This document shows positions 54,721 through 63,752 of a stretch of 64,000 bases of DNA, in pieces. The position numbers and the translations under genes were made by a program. The notes under the pieces are model-generated. The model saw only the letters and a program-made list of their open reading frames with translations, was not told the origin of the DNA and ran no database searches. Position 1 is the first letter of the stretch, and each line of letters begins with the position of its first letter. Origin of the DNA: an uncultured Nitrososphaerales archaeon (GTDB lineage Archaea; Thermoproteota; Nitrososphaeria; Nitrososphaerales; Gagatemarchaeaceae). The stretch lies in contig OY970160.1 of NCBI GenBank assembly GCA_963706445.1, positions 896,001-960,000 on the forward strand, read 5' to 3'.

Positions 54721-55608
54721 TCAGGCAGTGACCCAGACGGTCAGGCCCAGTACCAAGAAGATGATCGTTAGGTAGGGGCTGGTCAGCTTGAAGAGGGTCC
54801 AGGCGGTCTTGTTGCTCTGGGTCAGGGCGAGCTTTGCGCTGTAGGCGAGGACGATGCCTCCGAGGACTACGGCCGTCAGCACGTAGAAGATGCTGACCAC
54901 CGGGGTGAAGAGGAAGATGGCGACCGAGAAAACTGTAAGGAGTGCGCTGGTCCCTGCCACACATATTGATGCGACCCTATCACCGAAAACTATCGGGAGC
55001 ATGGGGACCTTGGCCGCTTCGTAGTCGCTCCTGTTGAATATGGCTAGGCTCCAGATATGGGTGGGTATCCATACTATGACGAGTGCAGACATGTAGATCG
55101 CGATGGGAGTTACAGTGTCGGCGACGGCCGTGTATCCCACCAGGACAGGCATGCCGCCGGAGATTCCTCCAAGGATAATGTTGAGCCAGCTCCTGCGCTT
55201 CAGGAGGAGCGAATAGATCACGATGTTGTCGATGAGGCCAATGATCATGAATGACGCGGAAATCGCGTTAATCAGGAAGAGCGGGACGAGGATGGAGAGG
55301 GCCGCCATGGCTAGGCCGAAGGCGAGGGCTGATCGGGGGTTGACCCTCCCCGAAGGGAGCGCGCGCTTCATTGTGCGCTTCATCATTCCGTCGATGTCCC
55401 TGTCGTGGTAGTTCGTCAACACCTCAGCCGAGGCGCTCCCGATGATCAGTGCGATGACACCGGTTGCGAACAGCCCCAGAGACAGAGACGCACCAGGCGT
55501 CTCTTTGAAAGCGACGAGCATGGCGATGGCCCCAGTGAAGACCAGGAGGCCCCAGATCCTCGGCTTGGTGAGACGCCAATAATCCTCGATGGTCTGTCTC
55601 ATAGGCAT
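54721..55608 (-). CDS. cyoE: Protoheme IX farnesyltransferase (heme O synthase)
   Basis: LTKPRI, DRDID.MM.RT..R.LPSG, LKRR, WIPTH.W.LA, DY..A.VPMLP. Confidence 0.95.
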   Translation of the reverse strand: MPMRQTIEDYWRLTKPRIWGLLVFTGAIAMLVAFKETPGASLSLGLFATGVIALIIGSASAEVLTNYHDRDIDGMMKRTMKRALPSGRVNPRSALAFGLAMAALSILVPLFLINAISASFMIIGLIDNIVIYSLLLKRRSWLNIILGGISGGMPVLVGYTAVADTVTPIAIYMSALVIVWIPTHIWSLAIFNRSDYEAAKVPMLPIVFGDRVASICVAGTSALLTVFSVAIFLFTPVVSIFYVLTAVVLGGIVLAYSAKLALTQSNKTAWTLFKLTSPYLTIIFLVLGLTVWVTA

Positions 55609-55659
55609 TTGATTCGACGCCTCCTCTCCGCAGTTAAAACGTTAGCGGACTCTGGAGGA

Positions 55660-56616
55660 CTAGGGCCCTACCACTTCGAGCGGATGGTCCTCCGCCATCT
55701 CTTCTTCTGACACGACTCCAGTGAACAGGGTCAGATCGGCGGGAAACTGGCGCGGGGTGAAGTGCACCTGATAGAAGTGGAAGACCCCGAGGAACAGAAC
55801 GGCCAGGAGAGCCTCCTTGACATGGAAAATGAATGCCAGTCCTCCCTCAGCGTTGAGGCCTCCGGACCAGATGAGAAGCCCCGGGAGCCCGAGGATGACC
55901 ATCCCCCAGTAAATCCCCCAGTAGTCGAACTTCTGGGCGTAGGAGTATTTCCCGAACTTCGGCTTCGGACCCCTTCCCAAATAGAACTTTAGGCTCGCGA
56001 AGAGGTCTGAGATGTCCTTCCTGTGGAAGTTGATGTCGAACCTAGCCGGCTGCTTGAGGAGCCTGTTCGTGAGGTACTTCGCAGAGTAATAGCCGAAATG
56101 ATAGGCGACGAGGACCCCCATGACTATGGCGGACCCGTAGTGTATGTCCAACGTCTGGGAAAGGCCGCCGAGGTAGCCCGCCACAGAGCTCCCCCATGAC
56201 AAATAGAACATCAGCGTGAAGCCCGTAAGGGCGGATATCCCTGTCGAAGCGATAAGGGTCAGGTGCTGGAAGGTCTCGTTCAGAGAGAACCTCTTCACCT
56301 TTGGGACCGACTTGTCCATCTTCGGTTTCTTGACTCTGTAGGCCGCGGTGGTCATCAAGTCGAGGGAATTGTGGACCAAGGCTATGAGGATCAGGATGGT
56401 GATGAGCAGGTCGAAGCCGAAACCTATGACTCCGTTCGCAGTGAACTGCACTGTGGTCGTGACCATGGGCTCGATGACCAGCGTCACAAGCCAGATTAGG
56501 CAGATCGAGGAAATCAGAGAAAATGTCACGATGCTTCCAATGACGCGGCCGGTGAACAGCCTGTCCCCTGGGGAGACGGAGGAGTTGGGACCCGAGTTAA
56601 CTTGGCCTGATTTCAT
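55660..56616 (-). CDS. Di-haem cytochrome b, FdnI/HyaC (formate dehydrogenase gamma) family, with extra N-terminal TM helices
   Basis: RFS...QH, LDIH, KFGKYSYAQKFDYW, IFH...VFH (four His ligands), G.VSEEEM.EDHP. Confidence 0.85.
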   Translation of the reverse strand: MKSGQVNSGPNSSVSPGDRLFTGRVIGSIVTFSLISSICLIWLVTLVIEPMVTTTVQFTANGVIGFGFDLLITILILIALVHNSLDLMTTAAYRVKKPKMDKSVPKVKRFSLNETFQHLTLIASTGISALTGFTLMFYLSWGSSVAGYLGGLSQTLDIHYGSAIVMGVLVAYHFGYYSAKYLTNRLLKQPARFDINFHRKDISDLFASLKFYLGRGPKPKFGKYSYAQKFDYWGIYWGMVILGLPGLLIWSGGLNAEGGLAFIFHVKEALLAVLFLGVFHFYQVHFTPRQFPADLTLFTGVVSEEEMAEDHPLEVVGP

Positions 56617-57527
56617 TTGCGAACGACCAGCTTCCTTGCCCTCAGGGCGACGCCGATGCCGAGCAGGATTCCGATCGCGAGCGCCACCCCCGCGAATATG
56701 TAGAGGGTGACCAGATTCAGCCCTGGGAATCCGGCCAGCAGGTCACTCCCGCTTCCGCTCTGAGTGTTGGTGTTGCTGGGTTGCGACGTTGTGGTCACCC
56801 CTGTAGTGGGATTGCTGGACTGTGTGGTCGTGGTGGTGCTTGAAGCCCCCGAGTAAGTCTGGTTCGACAGAATGAGGCTGTACGTGGCCATGTCGGTCGC
56901 CAGATGTTGACCAGGCGAAGAGAACTCCCCCACGGCAAATGCGATTTCCAGTGGTGTCCCGGAGGCAAAGGCTGTGAACGGGTCGTTCGCCGATGCGTTC
57001 GTCAGGTGGAACGGCCGGTAGCATTCCCCGGTGTAGGTCCCGTTGGAGACCACCAAGGAGCAGACCGATTGGGTGGCGTATCCGCTCTGTTCAACTGATG
57101 CGGGGGTGGTGTCCCCCGTCGAGATGAACTCGTCGTAGCCGCTCTGGAACGCAGTACTTAGGAGGATCATGATCGTCGGGGTGGAGGCGCTTCCCATCTC
57201 GCCGTAGTTGCTCGAATTCGCTATCTCGATCCCTCCGAAGCACCACTTGTCGTAGCAGTAGGACGAGGATTGCTGCCACTCCAGCAGGAAGAGCAGACCC
57301 GTACCGTTCTGTTTGAAGGCTACGTTCATCCCTGAAGTGCTTTCGGCTATCAGAGGTGTGTCGCTCCATTCGCCTTGCGACACGACTCCGTCAATGGAAA
57401 CAGGCGTCTGTGCTTTGTAGGCGGTGATGGTGGTCAAAGCGCTGACGGGTTGTGCCGCTCCTAGCGACACCGCGAGCAGGCCTGACAGAAGAGCCGCGAG
57501 CAGGATCAGACGCCGCTTCTGAGACAT
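56613..57527 (-). CDS. Secreted, C-terminally anchored DOMON-like domain protein (putative haem b binding)
   Basis: Signal peptide; PVSIDG....GEW, GLLFLLEW, ECYRP, IAFAVG DOMON-like pattern; candidate ligands Met (GEMG) and His (GQH); S/T linker and C-terminal TM helix. Confidence 0.6.
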   Translation of the reverse strand: MSQKRRLILLAALLSGLLAVSLGAAQPVSALTTITAYKAQTPVSIDGVVSQGEWSDTPLIAESTSGMNVAFKQNGTGLLFLLEWQQSSSYCYDKWCFGGIEIANSSNYGEMGSASTPTIMILLSTAFQSGYDEFISTGDTTPASVEQSGYATQSVCSLVVSNGTYTGECYRPFHLTNASANDPFTAFASGTPLEIAFAVGEFSSPGQHLATDMATYSLILSNQTYSGASSTTTTTQSSNPTTGVTTTSQPSNTNTQSGSGSDLLAGFPGLNLVTLYIFAGVALAIGILLGIGVALRARKLVVRK

Positions 57528-57581
57528 GTTAATTTCGTTCCTCTAGGCGTTTCGGAAGGGCGGGATTATACAGCCATCCGG

Positions 57582-57649
57582 GCAAATGTGAGCAAATGCA
57601 CGGATTGGCCTTTAACCGACATGTGCCCTCTTTCACACCCGAAGAAGAT
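57582..57649 (+). promoter_or_regulatory. Conserved promoter/operator of flavoprotein gene 1
   Basis: GCAAATGnnnGCAnnTnCAnGGATnnnnnTTTAAC; TATA-like TTTAAC 39 nt before ATG; aligns without gaps to 61849..61916 (minus strand). Confidence 0.6.
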
Positions 57650-59332
57650 ATGTCGAAAGAAAAGGAAGAAAAAAAGACACAACCAACAAAAGGCATCTCT
57701 AGACGTCAATTCCTCATAGGCACAGTAGGCGGCCTTGCGATTGGTGCGGCAGCGGGAGCTGCGGCCGGTTCGCTTGGGTTCCCGAAAACTCTCACTGCAC
57801 AGCCCTGGATACCCGCGAGTTGGGACGAGACCGCTGACGTCGTGGTCGTCGGGTTCGGATTCGCCGGTCAGGCGGCAGCCATCACGGCCCACGACGCGGG
57901 CGCAAAGGTCATCGTTCTGGAGAAAACGAGCGAAGCACTCTCCGGTGGGAACAGCAGGGTCTGCGGCCAGTGCACCTGGGTGCCTGGTACGAAGAACGAT
58001 GGGTCCGTGGACACCTCTCTAGTGGGCGGGCAGCTCGACTACTTCAAGGCAATGAGCGACGGCCAAGGCTTCCCAGTCCCAGACGACTATCTCGAGATGG
58101 CGGTGAACGAAAGCTCCAAGAACAAGACGTGGCTCGAAGGACTCGGCGCCACGACCACCTGGAGCATGTTCCCTCAACCATTCTACCCACAGCTCAATGG
58201 AGCGGCGGCAGTCAACGGCCCCAATGGAGGGTCATGGAGCGTCAAGGGGACCGAACCCTACGGGAACAACTGGTTCTTCCTCAAGCAACAGGTCGTGAAC
58301 AGGGGAATCAACGTGATGTACGGGACCCCGGCAAAGCAACTCATTCAGAACCCCCAAACCAAGGAAATACTCGGAGTAGTGGCGACAACGAATGGCGGAG
58401 ACATCAACGTGAAGGCAAGCAAGGGAGTGATTCTTGCCACAGGAGGCTACGAATATGCGCCTCAAATGGTAAGGGACTTCCTCAACATCCCCGAAATACA
58501 TTCGCTTGGCTCTCCTTCAAACACGGGAGACGGTCAGATGATGGCCATAGGCGCTGGAGCCGATCTCTGGCACATGGACGTGTTCGCCGCTCCGACGGGA
58601 TGGGCAATCAACCCACCCAACTACCAGTCAGCAATCAACGTATCCACCCCGACAAAGGGAGGCTTCATCTTCGTGGGCGCCGACAGCATGAGGTTCGATG
58701 ACGAGCTATACCCCGTAAGCCCCAATGCGACCCCCGGACTATCCCTGGTGGCCGGCAAGTATTACAAACATGGAGTCTACGTCACTCCACCATACCCGCT
58801 CCCGGTCCACATGGTATTCGACCAAACCGCCATGTCAAGTACGGCCCTGTTCGCTGGAATGGCAGGCCTCGGTTGGGCCCTGAACGTGGAAGGCTTCAAG
58901 GCAAGCCAGGACAACAGCACAGAGCTGGCCAACGGATGGATCGTCAAGGCGGACACAATTCAAGAATTAGCAACATCAATAGGCAAAGACCCCACCATCA
59001 TGTCCAACGAAGTGACCAACTGGAACGCTATGGTTGCGGCGGGCAAAGACAACGAATATGGAAGGACAGCTCAACTCGTCCCAATCTCCACACCTCCGTA
59101 CTACGCCATCGAAATCAAGCCGATGATCCTCAATACCCAAGGCGGTCCAGTCCGCAACTCCAAGGGTCAGATTCTAGACACCAACGGGAATGTCATCCCC
59201 AGGCTCTACGCGGCGGGTGAGAACGGGGAGATATTCAGCTACCTCTACCAGTGTTGCAGGAACGTCTCCCTGTGCTACTCCGTAGGTCGCCTAGCGGCTA
59301 CTGACGCTGCTGGGCTCACTGCTTGGCAGTAG
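57650..59332 (+). CDS. Tat-exported FAD-binding_2 flavoprotein (fumarate reductase/KstD superfamily)
   Basis: ISRRQFL twin-Arg; DVVVVGFGFAG, GVILATGGYE, NTGDG, NTQGGP, LYAAGE; ATG at 57650. Confidence 0.9.
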   Translation: MSKEKEEKKTQPTKGISRRQFLIGTVGGLAIGAAAGAAAGSLGFPKTLTAQPWIPASWDETADVVVVGFGFAGQAAAITAHDAGAKVIVLEKTSEALSGGNSRVCGQCTWVPGTKNDGSVDTSLVGGQLDYFKAMSDGQGFPVPDDYLEMAVNESSKNKTWLEGLGATTTWSMFPQPFYPQLNGAAAVNGPNGGSWSVKGTEPYGNNWFFLKQQVVNRGINVMYGTPAKQLIQNPQTKEILGVVATTNGGDINVKASKGVILATGGYEYAPQMVRDFLNIPEIHSLGSPSNTGDGQMMAIGAGADLWHMDVFAAPTGWAINPPNYQSAINVSTPTKGGFIFVGADSMRFDDELYPVSPNATPGLSLVAGKYYKHGVYVTPPYPLPVHMVFDQTAMSSTALFAGMAGLGWALNVEGFKASQDNSTELANGWIVKADTIQELATSIGKDPTIMSNEVTNWNAMVAAGKDNEYGRTAQLVPISTPPYYAIEIKPMILNTQGGPVRNSKGQILDTNGNVIPRLYAAGENGEIFSYLYQCCRNVSLCYSVGRLAATDAAGLTAWQ

Positions 59333-59346
59333 GCCACAGGAAGACT

Positions 59347-59357
59347 CCCCCTTTTTT
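59347..59357 (+). terminator. Oligo-U terminator
   Basis: CCCCCTTTTTT about 15 nt after the stop of flavoprotein 1. Confidence 0.5.
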
Positions 59358-59429
59358 AATCTGAACCAGTGGAATTCCTAGAAGAGCGCTCTGCGGCGTC
59401 GCACTCTCTTGGTCGTTTGTCGGCCGCCG

Positions 59430-60065
59430 CTAGGTGGAATCTGGGCAATACTTGCACGGGGAAGGGACAAGCTCGACGCTCTGCTCTACATCATTATCCA
59501 CATTCACTGTCGTTCGAAACATCTTGTGGTCCCGCTTCCACACCACCAGCTCTTGGCTGCCCTTCGGCACAGATACGACCGACCTGCCTGAGCCATCGGT
59601 GAACTGGGTCTTGCCTCCGATCCTGACGTAGGCGTTCGGGAGCAAGGCCTTGGTCGCACCCTCGGCGACTGCCACTGAGAACCGGCAAGAGGTCTTGATT
59701 ATGACCTGAGTTCCGAACTTGTACCTGGCTTCTAGGTGAGCGTGCTGGCCAGCAAGCTCGGGAAAGTGTGCTGTCCATTCGTGATATCCGAGGCTTTCGA
59801 GGATTCTAAGCTCGAGTTGAGCCCAGTATAGCGCCTTCGTGCCTTCGGCCGGAATCTCGCCGACTACTCCACTAGAGACTTGCCTCCCATCAGAGTCCAG
59901 GACCTCGATAAGAGCACCCGCGAGATTGCAATCCTCTTTGCACTTGACCCCGACCTTGACATGGACACCGGCGCCTTCCTCGATGGGGGTGGGCACATCC
60001 CAGACAGCTAAGCTGGTCTGGTGGAACTTGGCAACCGCGGTAGCTGTCGGCTCATGGTCCATCAT
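59430..60065 (-). CDS. Hypothetical beta-rich protein with C-terminal carboxypeptidase-regulatory-like domain and terminal CxxC
   Basis: NAYVRIG...TDGSG...VPKG pattern; KCKEDC; ends CKYCPDST; no signal peptide seen. Confidence 0.7.
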   Translation of the reverse strand: MMDHEPTATAVAKFHQTSLAVWDVPTPIEEGAGVHVKVGVKCKEDCNLAGALIEVLDSDGRQVSSGVVGEIPAEGTKALYWAQLELRILESLGYHEWTAHFPELAGQHAHLEARYKFGTQVIIKTSCRFSVAVAEGATKALLPNAYVRIGGKTQFTDGSGRSVVSVPKGSQELVVWKRDHKMFRTTVNVDNDVEQSVELVPSPCKYCPDST

Positions 60066-60198
60066 TTTCGCCTGTCCTCCCCTTGAAAGCAAGATGCCTC
60101 AACTGTACTGCCTACCTCGGAGATTCTTTAATCGCATCTTCGATTCTCTGTTTTGAGAACGAGTTTGTCGAAGGCCCTTACTGTGCTTCTGCCGATTG

Positions 60199-60212
60199 AA
60201 AAAAGGGAAAAG
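60199..60212 (-). terminator. Oligo-U terminator
   Basis: Minus strand CTTTTCCCTTTTTT about 25 nt after the stop of flavoprotein 2. Confidence 0.5.
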
Positions 60213-60234
60213 AGCGGATAGATTCAGTATCCGC

Positions 60235-61848
60235 TCACGAGCTTGCTGCTGCTTTGCCGGCTATCCAACCGAAGACGGTTCCTTGACCTACCGTAGCGCC
60301 GCCGCCGGGGTAGGCGGCACCGGATGGCGCCGCAATGTCGTTCCCTGCCCCGTATAGCCCTGGGATGGGATTGCCGCTCTGGTCGAGAACCTGGCCCGAG
60401 GTGTTTATCCTCGGCCCGCCAGATGTTCCGCAGGTTCCCGGAGAAATAGCCGCTGCGTAGAATGGTGGACTGGTCAAAGGTGCGAGGCAGTCGTTCTTCA
60501 AGTCTTTGCGTGTAGGATCTCCGGCTGTGACCGTGTCGAAGCTGAAAACCCCGCGGTTGAAGTCCGGGTCGACTCCGTTGATGGCATTGGCGTTGAACGC
60601 GGTTATGGTTGCCTGCAGCGCGACTGGGTCTATGTTAAGAGCAGACGCGAGGTCTTGAATCGAGTTCGCCTTGGTGACGTACGACGGTAATGCCGTAGCA
60701 GCCGCGGCTCCCGCCAAGCCGTACTTGTTGAAGGCCGTCGAATCCATGATGGTGTATGCCGGAATGTTCGGGTATCCGTAAATCTTTGTGTCCCACGACA
60801 AGAATGCCCTATTGGAGACTGGGTAGGACGAAGACTCGTTGACGAATCTCTTGCCGGCGGAGTTCACTATGATTGCGCCTGGCTTCGTCCTCCATATGGC
60901 CCAGTCGAGGACCGGACCGTTAGGAGTCACGTACAGGGGGACACCCCAATTGTTGTTCATGTTTCCGAGGCTGGCTCCGACTGCCATTGCCATCTTGATC
61001 CCGTCGCCGGTGTTGGTTTTTGCTGCGCCTGACCCGCCCAACGGGCCTCTCGGGTAGTTCAAGAACATGTCTGGGTCAAAGTCATATCCACCGGCGGCTA
61101 GGATGACTCCTTTGTTTGCGCCTATGTTGACGTTGGTCCCGTTGGATGTCGCCAGAAGTCCCACAATTTTCTTCGTCGAATCTTGGTACAGACTAACCGC
61201 CGCCGTGCTGAGCATCGTCGTGCCTCCCAGCTTGTCGACGTAGGCTTTCATTGCCTTAATGAGGCCTGGACCCGCCTCCTTGTACTCGACGAGGTGCCCG
61301 AAGCTCCTAGTAGCCCCGAGGTTGTAGTAGTCGTTGTACTGTGGGGAAAGATATGGCGTGAGGGCTCCGTTTGTCACATTGACGAGATGGTCAATCCATG
61401 TCGGCCCCACGGTCAAGTATGTGTTGAGGAGGTCAGTGTCCTCCTGGCCGCCGCCCACCGCATGCAGATAAGTCATGAGCGTGTCTGTCGAGTCGGTCAG
61501 TCCCTGTGCGACTGCCAGGCTGCTGTTTGGAACCCACATTCCGCCTCCGGATACCCCCGTGGTGCCTCCGACGCTCGCCGCCTTCTCGAGCACTATCACG
61601 GATGCCCCCGATTCGAGGGCTCCCATGGCCGCAGCTAGGCCGGATCCTCCGGACCCAACGACGACTACGTCCGCCTGATGGTCCCATGATGAAGGTATGT
61701 TGATGATGTCTGACTGCGAAGTCTTGGGGGACAGCAGATATCCTCCCGCAACGCCAGCCGCAGCCCCAACGGCAAGGCCTCCGACTGTCCCAATGAGGAA
61801 TTGTCTTCGAGAGATGCCTTTCTTAGTTTCTTTCTTTTCTTCAGCCAT
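60235..61848 (-). CDS. Tat-exported FAD-binding_2 flavoprotein, 3-ketosteroid-delta1-dehydrogenase-like
   Basis: ISRRQFL; VVGSGGSG, GGTTGVSGGGMWVP, NDYY, RFVNESSSY, GLYGAGN, YPGGGATVG; ATG at 61848. Confidence 0.88.
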   Translation of the reverse strand: MAEEKKETKKGISRRQFLIGTVGGLAVGAAAGVAGGYLLSPKTSQSDIINIPSSWDHQADVVVVGSGGSGLAAAMGALESGASVIVLEKAASVGGTTGVSGGGMWVPNSSLAVAQGLTDSTDTLMTYLHAVGGGQEDTDLLNTYLTVGPTWIDHLVNVTNGALTPYLSPQYNDYYNLGATRSFGHLVEYKEAGPGLIKAMKAYVDKLGGTTMLSTAAVSLYQDSTKKIVGLLATSNGTNVNIGANKGVILAAGGYDFDPDMFLNYPRGPLGGSGAAKTNTGDGIKMAMAVGASLGNMNNNWGVPLYVTPNGPVLDWAIWRTKPGAIIVNSAGKRFVNESSSYPVSNRAFLSWDTKIYGYPNIPAYTIMDSTAFNKYGLAGAAAATALPSYVTKANSIQDLASALNIDPVALQATITAFNANAINGVDPDFNRGVFSFDTVTAGDPTRKDLKNDCLAPLTSPPFYAAAISPGTCGTSGGPRINTSGQVLDQSGNPIPGLYGAGNDIAAPSGAAYPGGGATVGQGTVFGWIAGKAAASS

Positions 61849-61916
61849 TTGCTTCTTCGTTATGAGATGTTGCCTACAGGCGTTAAAACGGCATCCATGG
61901 AAGTGCATGCATTTGC
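61849..61916 (-). promoter_or_regulatory. Conserved promoter/operator of flavoprotein gene 2
   Basis: Same motif and identical spacing to ATG as 57582..57649. Confidence 0.6.
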
Positions 61917-61981
61917 GAACATCCCTCCGCAAGCTGTCATCGCGTTGCGGAGCCGGTTTGACACGATTCCCCTAAGTTTGA

Positions 61982-62371
61982 ATGGTATCGCCGGCTAGAC
62001 CTTATATACACACCCAGACGTTTCTCAGATTCGAGAATAACTCGAAGGGCTCACTCTCTTCCATAAGCTTCCTCGTCTGTTCGGCGCTGTGGATTTCCGA
62101 TGGGCTGACTTCGATAATCGGTCTTTCCGAGGGCTTGCAGGAAACAGAAGCGTTCGCAGGATTCCTGCTTGCCAACTTCGGGGAGCCGGGGTTCCTCGTC
62201 TTCAAGTTCTCGATTGCCCTGCTGATTACAGCGACGGCGATCCTATATGGCGAGAGGCTTGAGAAGCACAGCGAGTTCTCTCGCCTGTTCTACTTCTGCG
62301 TATCGGTGTCCCTGCTTTTTGCCGCCGCGCTTCCTGTTATCAACAACATGATACTGCTAGGTTGGTTGTAG
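61982..62371 (+). CDS. Small membrane protein (DUF5658-like)
   Basis: DGLTS..GL..G..E, VFK, VINN pattern; 3 TM helices; start uncertain. Confidence 0.5.
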   Translation: MVSPARPYIHTQTFLRFENNSKGSLSSISFLVCSALWISDGLTSIIGLSEGLQETEAFAGFLLANFGEPGFLVFKFSIALLITATAILYGERLEKHSEFSRLFYFCVSVSLLFAAALPVINNMILLGWL

Positions 62372-62459
62372 TCCTCAAAACGGCCTGACTCTCATTGCCG
62401 ATAATGAGAATTGTCCCAAGTCTTAAATAAAGTGCGGTGAGCGCTGGCTTCGAGGAAAA

Positions 62460-62816
62460 ATGGCATTCGGAGACCCACTCCAGTGGATAATCATCGGCGT
62501 AATCGTCGTCGTGATATTCCTATGGGGTCCGCAGAAGATTCCTGAACTAGCGAGGGGCCTCGGAAGGGCCAAGGGTGAATTCGAGAAAGCGTCGAAGGAA
62601 TTCGACGCGGCGTCGAAGCAGGTCACCGCCGGCGTCCTTACCGCGGGCACCACTGCTGCCACAGGGACTGCTCCCCAGGCGGCACCGGCGTTCGTGGAAA
62701 AGTCGGGTGACCAGATTCTCGTGGAGACTGCAAAGGCCCTTGGTGTGACTACCGAAGGCAAGTCCAGGGAGCAGATCTCACAGGAAATCATCGCGAGAAC
62801 GAAGTCTCAACCGTAG
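62460..62816 (+). CDS. tatA: Twin-arginine translocase TatA/TatE
   Basis: TM helix then WGPQKIPELARGLG.A..EF.KA. Confidence 0.93.
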   Translation: MAFGDPLQWIIIGVIVVVIFLWGPQKIPELARGLGRAKGEFEKASKEFDAASKQVTAGVLTAGTTAATGTAPQAAPAFVEKSGDQILVETAKALGVTTEGKSREQISQEIIARTKSQP

Positions 62817-62843
62817 CCTCGGCAAGGGGCCTGACGAAGACGG

Positions 62844-63752
62844 TTGTCTGAGCTACTCGCCTCCATATATGTTCACCTGAACGAGCTGAGGTCCCGGCTC
62901 AAGGTCGTCTTCCTCAGCTTCCTTATCATACTGATAATCCTCGTCTTCTTCCCCTCAAACCCTGTCTACTCCTTCCAGCACCTCGATCAGTACTTTACTC
63001 TCGCGTTCCTGGAGCATACGGTAATTTCGACTTTCCTCCAGAACATTGTTGCCTACATTCTGCCCTCGAACTGGACCCTCATCGGAGCCACAGGCATCGG
63101 GGAGGGAATGGAGATCTACTTCGTAGCCGCTCTGCTTCTCGCCGTTGTCCTTGACATGCCTGTAATTGCCTACGAGACATACAAGTTTGTCGACCCGGCC
63201 CTGAAAGAAAACGAAAGGGGAATGATTTACCCCTTCATTGCCGCGACGTCGATTCTGTTCGCGGTCGGAATCCTATTCGGATTCTTCATCCTTGCCAAAT
63301 TCCTCGTAATCGCCCTGTCTCCGTTCTACGTAGCCACTGGTATCTCGTTCCAAGTCGATGCAGCCGCATTCTACTATGTAGTACTTCTAATCATTGGTGC
63401 CACGGGGGTGTCATTCACGGCGCCAGTTTTCATCTACTCGTTGATTCGGCTGAGAGTGATCAACGCAGACTTCTTCTCGAAGAACAGGGTCATGGTTTGG
63501 TTCGTCCTTTGGATTATCACCGGGCTGTTTCTGACTCCTGACGGCGGGCCACTGCTTGACATGGTGCTTTTCGTCCCCATAGTCACCATGGTGGAAATCG
63601 CAGTGTGGCTTGGCAGGAGAAGCGTCAGAGGAAAGGGACCGCCATCCCCTCCTCCTGAGAAACCGAAATGGGACGTGAAGTGCCCATCATGCGGAAGGCA
63701 ACAGAAGAGGCCGACTCTGTTCTGCGAGTACTGCGGCAAAGGGATAGCTTGA
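62844..63752 (+). CDS. tatC: Twin-arginine translocase TatC with C-terminal zinc ribbon
   Basis: HLNELRSRL, YE.YKFV.PAL...E, FLTPDG; tail CPSC...CEYC. Confidence 0.92.
   Translation: MSELLASIYVHLNELRSRLKVVFLSFLIILIILVFFPSNPVYSFQHLDQYFTLAFLEHTVISTFLQNIVAYILPSNWTLIGATGIGEGMEIYFVAALLLAVVLDMPVIAYETYKFVDPALKENERGMIYPFIAATSILFAVGILFGFFILAKFLVIALSPFYVATGISFQVDAAAFYYVVLLIIGATGVSFTAPVFIYSLIRLRVINADFFSKNRVMVWFVLWIITGLFLTPDGGPLLDMVLFVPIVTMVEIAVWLGRRSVRGKGPPSPPPEKPKWDVKCPSCGRQQKRPTLFCEYCGKGIA

Follow-up and report, generated by a model that had tools for sequence, protein, structure and literature searches.

How might an archaeon connect exported flavoenzymes to its membrane at a locus in which no gene carries the CxxCH motif of a cytochrome c? 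This question is raised by positions 54721-63752 of the window, by which we mean the whole 64,000-nucleotide stretch analysed here (contig OY970160.1, positions 896,001 to 960,000, assembly GCA_963706445.1), from an uncultured Nitrososphaerales archaeon of the family Gagatemarchaeaceae whose genome (G000) is 1.82 Mb in one contig and 95% complete. An original prediction had described the segment as a candidate flavin-reductase respiratory module, consisting of two flavoproteins with twin-arginine translocation (Tat) signals, a secreted DOMON-like haem protein, an FdnI-type di-haem cytochrome b and an unassigned CxxC protein, together with cyoE, tatA and tatC; it had also reported the absence of CxxCH motifs, with which we agree. 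All the genes it named lie where it had placed them. The answer that we favour, to which we give a probability of roughly 0.4, is that the part of the segment between cyoE and tatA-tatC may encode flavoenzymes that act outside the cytoplasm, are tied to the membrane without any cytochrome c and work in the oxidising direction. Nine open reading frames (ORFs) were read in the segment, listed here with the one intergenic region of interest:

54721-55608, minus strand: cyoE, haem o synthase (NF003349, 267 bits against a cut-off of 246), left flank of the insert
55660-56616, minus strand: cytochrome b (P0002, 318 aa; PF01292, 31.8 bits against a cut-off of 30.1)
56613-57527, minus strand: DOMON-like secreted protein (P0001, 304 aa; EB_dh/DOMON fold by model)
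57528-57649, no strand: divergent intergenic region of 122 bp between the DOMON-like gene and flavoprotein 1
57650-59332, plus strand: flavoprotein 1, Tat-signal FAD_binding_2 protein (PF00890, E 8.6e-39)
59430-60065, minus strand: P0005, putative five-Cys partner of flavoprotein 1 (211-220 aa), conserved adjacency
60235-61848, minus strand: flavoprotein 2, Tat-signal KstD-type protein (PF00890, E 1.9e-64)
61982-62371, plus strand: P0006, small hydrophobic ORF (129 aa), right end of the insert
62460-62816, plus strand: tatA (PF02416, E 1.9e-13), right flank
62844-63752, plus strand: tatC (PF00902, E 2.4e-33), right flank

The limits of the module can be read from its relatives. In three congeners (G006, G011 and G016; loci L077, L078 and L080), with which 55609-62459 of the window was compared, cyoE stands directly beside tatA-tatC, with a gap of 140-180 bp and full synteny to the left of cyoE. 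Because these flanks adjoin each other there, gene-order comparison identifies 55660-62371 as a 6.7-kb insert between cyoE and tatA-tatC, and the flanking genes, which had been counted into the module, turn out to be its pre-existing neighbours; tatAC as a module-specific translocase was likewise rejected, since it adjoins cyoE in congeners that have no module. The inserted state is common to close metagenomic relatives, where cytochrome b again leads into cyoE at 82-88% identity. The insert may have been gained in the G000 lineage or lost in the congeners. At the right end of the insert, P0006 has no match in Pfam or NCBIfam and no counterpart was seen in related loci, and it may not be a genuine gene.

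The FdnI-type identity of the cytochrome b holds, with PF01292 above its cut-off and a match to the FdnI fold: the AlphaFold2 model of P0002 (pLDDT 81.6) places two added N-terminal membrane helices before a four-helix FdnI-like core (residues 103-318), which matches FdnI (1kqf/1kqg chain C) with a Foldseek E of 4.7e-4 and a VIA-align Z of 13.3 (193 of 216 residues aligned), followed by CybB (Z 9.2) and HyaC (Z 8.6). Eight His are invariant in both clades of the cytochrome b described below; they include the same-helix pairs H159/H173 and H265/H280 of P0002, spaced 14-15 residues apart, and may contain the ligands of the two haems.

Two kinds of gene neighbourhood separate along the identity scale of this cytochrome. 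At 54% identity to P0002 or above, a DOMON-like gene always lies directly upstream (12/12 with upstream DNA); at 43-50% nearly all copies lie between the genes for the small and large subunits of a [NiFe]-hydrogenase (about 20 loci), the sole exception being a hydrogenase-type orphan in G227 that is convergent with a flavoprotein gene. A maximum-likelihood tree gathers the DOMON-linked cytochromes in a single clade (99/97) that excludes every copy linked to a hydrogenase, and P0002 thus apparently derives from a hydrogenase anchor subunit. The original prediction had named a formate dehydrogenase or hydrogenase encoded elsewhere as a possible true partner of the cytochrome. For relatives the hydrogenase partnership stands, by way of the paralogous clade; for P0002 in G000 it falls, and we rejected it, since the whole genome contains neither a PF00384 molybdoenzyme nor the group-1 [NiFe]-hydrogenase subunits HyaA and HyaB, and its sole PF00374 match spans just 70 N-terminal profile positions. 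P0002 would therefore be without a classical partner, because no molybdopterin enzyme and no HyaA/HyaB is encoded with it. HyaB was likewise not found in G160, the other complete genome in which a DOMON-like gene leads into the cytochrome b gene.

The protein encoded just upstream, P0001, was described as secreted, membrane-anchored and DOMON-like, and both its layout and its fold agree with this. A signal peptide is followed by a beta-sandwich (residues ~31-228) and a Ser/Thr-rich stalk (229-268), after which come the sequence GFPGLN, a helix in the membrane and, last, a tail of basic residues; in the AlphaFold2 model, made from 26 homologues (pLDDT 81), the stalk is disordered and a helix stands at the C-terminus. 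When this model was compared by VIA-align with 48,161 chains, with Foldseek in agreement, the top match was EbdC (2ivf_C), the haem-b gamma subunit of ethylbenzene dehydrogenase (Z 17.0, rmsd 2.7, 175 aa), followed by NxrC (7b04_C, Z 16.5), with the DOMON domain of dopamine beta-hydroxylase (4zel, Z 12.2) and the cytochrome domains of cellobiose dehydrogenase (CDH; Z ~10) further down. The nearest protein Atlas clusters are gamma subunits of steroid C25 dehydrogenase, of the EB_dh family. At the level of sequence the kinship is fainter: hhalign of the P0001 family against P0182, a true EB_dh protein, gave 94% probability over just 69 N-terminal residues, P0182 has no sequence match to 2ivf, and sequence searches of the PDB with P0001, P0002 and the A1 profile returned no useful match. 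The family itself is tiny, with 40 matches among 1.84 billion representative proteins.

Within this family all 26 close members have both M111 and H208, as do most distant ones, down to 21% identity; P0157 has neither, and H208 is absent from two family members. The two residues are 97 positions apart, and Met65 and His163, the haem ligands of the CDH cytochrome, are 98 apart; the CDH M65H mutant (PDB 1pl3) is itself among the structural matches. The haem ligands of EbdC are Met and Lys, with a potential of +256 mV (PMC8840923). Binding of haem b by P0001 through Met111 and His208 is plausible on the model. As side observations, the C-terminus of P0001 (56613-56730) has the layout of an archaeosortase sorting signal, with its Ser/Thr stalk, GFPGLN, membrane helix and basic tail; G000 has two exosortase-family genes and five proteins with a PEF-type C-terminal signal (G000:C1:157609-159163), one of which adjoins an archaeosortase gene. 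In a subclade of 54-56% identity (L005:9140-10738 and L050) the gene before that of the cytochrome b encodes a 532-aa protein with two DOMON-like domains in tandem.

Several features link the parts. The ATGA overlap between the stop of the DOMON-like gene and the start of the cytochrome b gene is present as originally described and is conserved in 12/12 DOMON-linked loci, which span 54-85% cytochrome b identity. Three proteins of 494-520 aa among distant metagenome members (P0174, P0175 and P0177) combine, within one chain, a DOMON-like domain with a membrane helix and with PF01292 over its full extent (E 9e-12 to 2e-15), P0174 with a weak EB_dh match in addition (E 0.005); judged by their domain content, these are natural fusions of P0001-like and P0002-like proteins. 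One of the three is annotated in one source as 'thiosulfate reductase cytochrome b subunit'. Weak A1-profile matches in a sister family (G037, G051 and G105) were checked as further candidates and are not fusions.

The original prediction also expected these genes to co-occur in related genomes, and they do: among 18 other genomic loci, 16 have a Tat flavoprotein gene next to the DOMON-like gene, in most cases immediately upstream, in the same orientation and at a short distance, and four further loci are alike. The family includes 13 genomes with a DOMON-like gene and 13 with a flavoprotein, 11 of them having both; since these genomes are kin, the counts are given without statistics. In G160, one of the exceptions, it is a more divergent flavoprotein that adjoins the DOMON-like gene. 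In the window itself, the 122 bp between the DOMON-like start and the ATG of flavoprotein 1, with the two genes divergent, were confirmed, and the same divergent layout is found on the metagenome contigs L042 and L046. The homologous loci come from Nitrososphaerota metagenome-assembled genomes (MAGs), including Candidatus Gagatemarchaeum of the same GTDB family as G000, from peat, bog and acid soil.

That both flavoproteins are Tat-signal FAD_binding_2 proteins is well supported. The N-terminal sequence GISRRQFLIGTVGG is found in both (motif GISRRQFL), S/T-R-R-x-F-L being followed by a hydrophobic region as expected of a Tat signal, and the twin-arginine motif recurs in 18/22 homologous flavoprotein ORFs, with PRRQFL in one more; of the remaining three, two run off the end of their contig and one is a mis-called ORF. 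We also observed a 136-nt inverted repeat, 72% complementary, at window positions 57655-57790 and 61720-61855, which spans the start and the Tat-signal coding parts of both otherwise divergent flavoprotein genes; TTTAAC is shared ~40 nt upstream of each ATG. The repeat suggests that the leaders are a duplicated or converted cassette.

What the two enzymes do is the point at which the label 'flavin reductase', as given by the original prediction, does not hold as established. The closest solved relatives of flavoprotein 2 are AcmB (7p18, 2.1e-59) and 8am3. Its residues Y202, Y370, Y541 and G545 align with Y118, Y363, Y536 and G540 of 7p18, the catalytic residues of AcmB. Its score remains under every NCBIfam equivalog cut-off (336 bits against 789 for NF009478), and in the divergent flavoproteins that adjoin DOMON-like genes elsewhere the positions of the KstD motif are not reliably alignable. 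The other relative, 8am3, is a cyclohexanone dehydrogenase (PMC10966990) whose sequence starts Tat-like, with SRRGFL. For its part, flavoprotein 1 lies closest to Fcc3 and UrdA, with a TIGR01813 score of 158 against a cut-off of 285; in its HMMER alignment with 1qo8, His504 of Fcc3 (in 'gihhtmgg') is replaced by L/N and Arg545 (in 'nrlgg') by Y. Because flavoprotein 2 keeps the KstD catalytic residues, we consider oxidation by the module at least as likely as reduction, and oxidation is favoured further by the hydrogenase-anchor ancestry of the cytochrome, by the two haem-copper oxidase (COX1) genes in G000 and by the absence of a hydrogenase there.

Flavoprotein 1 has a companion. The CxxC protein of the original prediction, P0005, is present as described, and it proves to be no stray gene: a homologue lies directly beside the flavoprotein 1 orthologue in 4/4 genomes in which the DNA is resolved (G227, G339, G345 and G327), flavoprotein 1 orthologues of 54-59% identity being found in five relatives. 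The P0005 homologues, 41-44% identical and one copy per genome, have five invariant Cys (CxxxC, C128 and CKxC), no signal peptide and a beta-sandwich-like sequence; they match no Pfam or NCBIfam family and no plasmid homologue, the Atlas giving a CarboxypepD_reg-like lead. They apparently share metagenome contigs with DOMON-like/cytochrome b pairs, the contigs being matched by size (14337 and 18891). Judged from gene order, P0005 is a specific partner of flavoprotein 1. It may serve in maturation or export, or else be a co-exported, metal-binding small subunit; with its five invariant Cys, the original prediction's statement that no Fe-S subunit was seen in the locus may not hold. The genes that flank the flavoprotein 1 orthologues are housekeeping genes and are uninformative on substrate.

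The reading that we favour builds on gene identities, folds, Tat motifs, translational coupling, co-occurrence, the separate cytochrome b clade, the fusions and a genome with neither hydrogenase nor molybdoenzyme to act as partner; from these we infer that haem is bound, that the subunits are in contact and that the chain is coupled to quinone, as well as its substrates and its direction. The two flavin adenine dinucleotide (FAD) enzymes would fold in the cytoplasm and be exported by Tat, flavoprotein 1 probably travelling or working with the five-Cys P0005. Outside the cell they would oxidise organic substrates, flavoprotein 2 perhaps as a KstD-type alpha,beta-desaturase of cyclic ketones, and the electrons would pass to a haem b in P0001, on its stalk, with Met111 and His208 as ligands, and from there to the outer of the two haems in the FdnI-type cytochrome b, whose translation is coupled to that of P0001. 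This cytochrome would then reduce quinone at the cytoplasmic side, completing a redox loop, and the quinol would be reoxidised by the two haem-copper oxidases.

A number of points weigh against this scenario and need to be set out together. All of its steps are inferred from sequence and models. P0001 matches no Pfam family at E <= 0.01, PF09459 and PF03351 included, and its ligand candidates cannot be mapped onto EbdC residue by residue, the fold comparison giving ranges only; flavoprotein 1 has no recognisable catalytic signature. A haem of the EB_dh type near +256 mV (PMC8840923) would mean that transfer to a low-potential quinone is uphill. In addition, most relatives have after the DOMON-like gene not the cytochrome b but an unrelated 215-aa membrane protein, here called c2, and the module genes of relatives cluster with an uptake hydrogenase, which hints at reduction.

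Both of the latter observations deserve a closer look. The c2 proteins are polytopic membrane proteins of 211-222 aa with no Pfam family, just faint DUF2231 hints (E 0.084), and with one invariant His and an invariant N-terminal WH...E motif; examples directly downstream of DOMON-like genes are L003:10998-11666, L015:10801-11436 and six others. As a relative of the cytochrome b, c2 was rejected (hhalign probability 0.5%). In L002, c2 stands between the DOMON-like gene and cyoE, and because it thus holds the position of the cytochrome b in the window, gene order suggests that one of these two membrane proteins has replaced the other; c2 is a candidate alternative membrane partner. The hydrogenase clusters (L013, L015, L062 and L070; e.g. 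L062:8726-19104) read HyaA, cytochrome b, HyaB, DOMON-like, c2, long DOMON-like, Tat flavoprotein and a further protein, c5; the hydrogenase operons of the same genus (L025-L027) have no cytochrome b. The c5 protein (~480-510 aa; L013:14254-15705, L002:2989-4509) recurs beside flavoproteins and has no Pfam match, and its C-terminus (SGFRSPQRN...H..GRALD...H.H) resembles, by eye, zinc peptidases of the LAS/M15 type.

The chief rival runs the same chain backwards, from quinol through cytochrome b and the DOMON-like haem b to the Tat flavoproteins as interchangeable terminal reductases of an anaerobic respiration, possibly with enoates, cinnamates or humic-derived compounds as acceptors and, in relatives, perhaps with H2 as donor. 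Characterised secreted PF00890 enzymes are mostly reductases, Fcc3, UrdA, Cgr2 and the gut 'reductase arsenals' being respiratory ones (bioRxiv 10.1101/2022.12.26.521950). Within the order, the flavoprotein paralogues have expanded in a sister genus to 8 to 15 or more per genome (each of G327, G227, G345, G339 and G210 has 8 to 15+ paralogous Tat FAD_binding_2 genes, an archaeal counterpart of the bacterial arsenals) and are missing from all 54 congeners; the DOMON-like gene occurs in 12/23 genomes of this sister genus and in two further genera, and it too is missing from the congeners (0/54). This expansion, the superfamily precedent and the hydrogenase-headed cluster just described all favour reduction, and the peat, bog and acid-soil origin of the homologous MAGs would suit it. 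Set against this, flavoprotein 2 keeps the KstD dehydrogenase tetrad, flavoprotein 1 has no equivalents of His504 and Arg545 of Fcc3, G000 is an aerobe with two COX1 genes and no hydrogenase, and cytochromes of the FdnI/HyaC type normally reduce quinone. We regard reverse flow as somewhat less likely than the oxidising direction. Of similar, tentative standing is a broader proposal that the tethered EB_dh/DOMON haem b is a shared mobile shuttle, which in cytochrome-c-poor archaea would replace periplasmic cytochrome c and link changing Tat flavoenzymes (and, in relatives, the uptake hydrogenase) to a membrane partner, whose place in this lineage would have been taken by a cytochrome b from the hydrogenase operon. 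The outcome might be a flavoenzyme:quinone redox loop of a new type, which would either dispense with Fe-S and haem-c subunits or include P0005 as a new metal-bearing small subunit.

Two further alternatives take the system apart. The DOMON-like/cytochrome b pair might be a stand-alone conduit to Fe(III), humics or oxygen radicals, in the manner of CYBDOM ferric reductases or the superoxide oxidase CybB, and the flavoproteins independent co-travellers on the island. In G160 the pair lies ~230 kb from the flavoprotein cluster, relatives have the flavoprotein 1 orthologue and P0005 on their own with housekeeping genes around them, CybB ranks second among the fold matches of the cytochrome, and the fusion proteins need no flavoprotein; the adjacency in 16/18 loci, the 11 genomes with both genes and the divergent layout kept in L042 and L046 nevertheless make an independent conduit unlikely. 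More improbable again, in our estimate, is that P0001 holds no haem and serves as a CBM9-like sugar-binding module or structural anchor for the flavoproteins, the cytochrome b having another role. CBM9 modules are near in fold (Z 14.1 and 12.2), which also counts against the scenario that we favour; the missing Pfam haem-domain match, the Sec-type leader, with which haem would need loading outside the cell, and the loss of H208 in two family members point the same way. Yet haem-b subunits are the top fold matches of P0001, its nearest Atlas clusters are EB_dh gamma subunits, its Met and His are conserved at CDH-like spacing, and its gene is coupled to, and elsewhere fused with, that of a di-haem cytochrome b.

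The proposed oxidative module, with each part drawn from a known superfamily, can be placed among systems already characterised. The gamma subunits EbdC, NxrC and that of steroid C25 dehydrogenase share with P0001 the beta-sandwich fold and the extracytoplasmic location, and the single haem b of the EbdC type is the electron port of a Tat-exported catalytic unit, as proposed for P0001; the partner there is a molybdenum (Mo-bisMGD) alpha subunit with an Fe-S beta subunit and here it would be an FAD enzyme, and P0001 differs in its predicted ligands (Met/His against Met/Lys; PMC8840923), in having its own stalk and membrane anchor and in matching no PF09459. FdnI of E. coli formate dehydrogenase-N and HyaC of hydrogenase-1 have the fold, PF01292 and conserved His pairs in common with P0002, which in turn has no Fe-S partner subunit, is coupled to a DOMON-like protein, bears two extra N-terminal helices and belongs to a distinct clade. 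Fungal CDH follows the same logic as the proposed module, its flavoenzyme passing electrons to a Met/His haem-b beta-sandwich tethered by a flexible linker; it differs as a single soluble eukaryotic polypeptide with a GMC flavodomain and a lytic polysaccharide monooxygenase (LPMO) as acceptor, where the module has FAD_binding_2 proteins and a membrane cytochrome b. By analogy, the module would work most like CDH joined to the membrane half of formate dehydrogenase-N or hydrogenase-1.

On the side of the flavoproteins, Shewanella Fcc3 and UrdA, Eggerthella Cgr2 and the 'reductase arsenals' have superfamily, signal-peptide export and paralogue expansion in common with the module, but they are fed through haem c or FMN domains, and the module has neither CxxCH nor FMN_bind. 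The KstD, AcmB and cyclohexanone dehydrogenase group (7p18, 4c3x and 8am3) shares its Tyr/Tyr/Tyr/Gly positions with flavoprotein 2, which differs in being archaeal, Tat-exported and encoded beside putative haem-b carriers. Eukaryotic CYBDOM proteins join a DOMON haem domain to a transmembrane di-haem cytochrome b, of the b561 fold (PF03188), a fold unrelated to that of P0002. Bacterial gluconate and fructose dehydrogenases, in which a Tat-exported FAD dehydrogenase works with a membrane tri-haem cytochrome c subunit that reduces quinone, parallel the module, and their tri-haem cytochrome c is absent from the locus. What would be new is that a Tat flavoenzyme is combined with an EB_dh-like haem-b protein on a tether and with a cytochrome b of the FdnI type; as read from the genes, neither Mo nor haem c nor a classical Fe-S subunit takes part. 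A genomic description of the Gagatemarchaeaceae makes no mention of hydrogenase, flavoprotein or DOMON (PMC10640624), and we found no description of the gene combination in the open-access literature, which falls short of proving novelty.

At the edges of the insert we note two observations on tatC: in the window, the C-terminal extension of TatC (63680-63752) contains two CxxC pairs (CPSC and CEYC), with a weak double-zinc-ribbon match (E 0.007), and in the congener G016 tatC looks broken, with split frames and one TAG.

The Gagatemarchaeaceae (thaumarchaeal Group I.1c), which are abundant in acid soils and peat, are uncultured and do not oxidise ammonia; their energy metabolism is known from genome inference only. 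If our proposal is right, a hydrogenase anchor subunit would have been re-used for a different enzyme, and archaeal extracytoplasmic electron chains could be built from b-type haems alone; the proteins of the module are short enough for direct expression and testing. For the organism, flavoenzymes at the cell surface would feed the respiratory chain and so yield energy from organic compounds that need not be imported, or, if the flow is reversed, the cells could respire organic compounds, and in either direction the module would bear on carbon turnover in peat.

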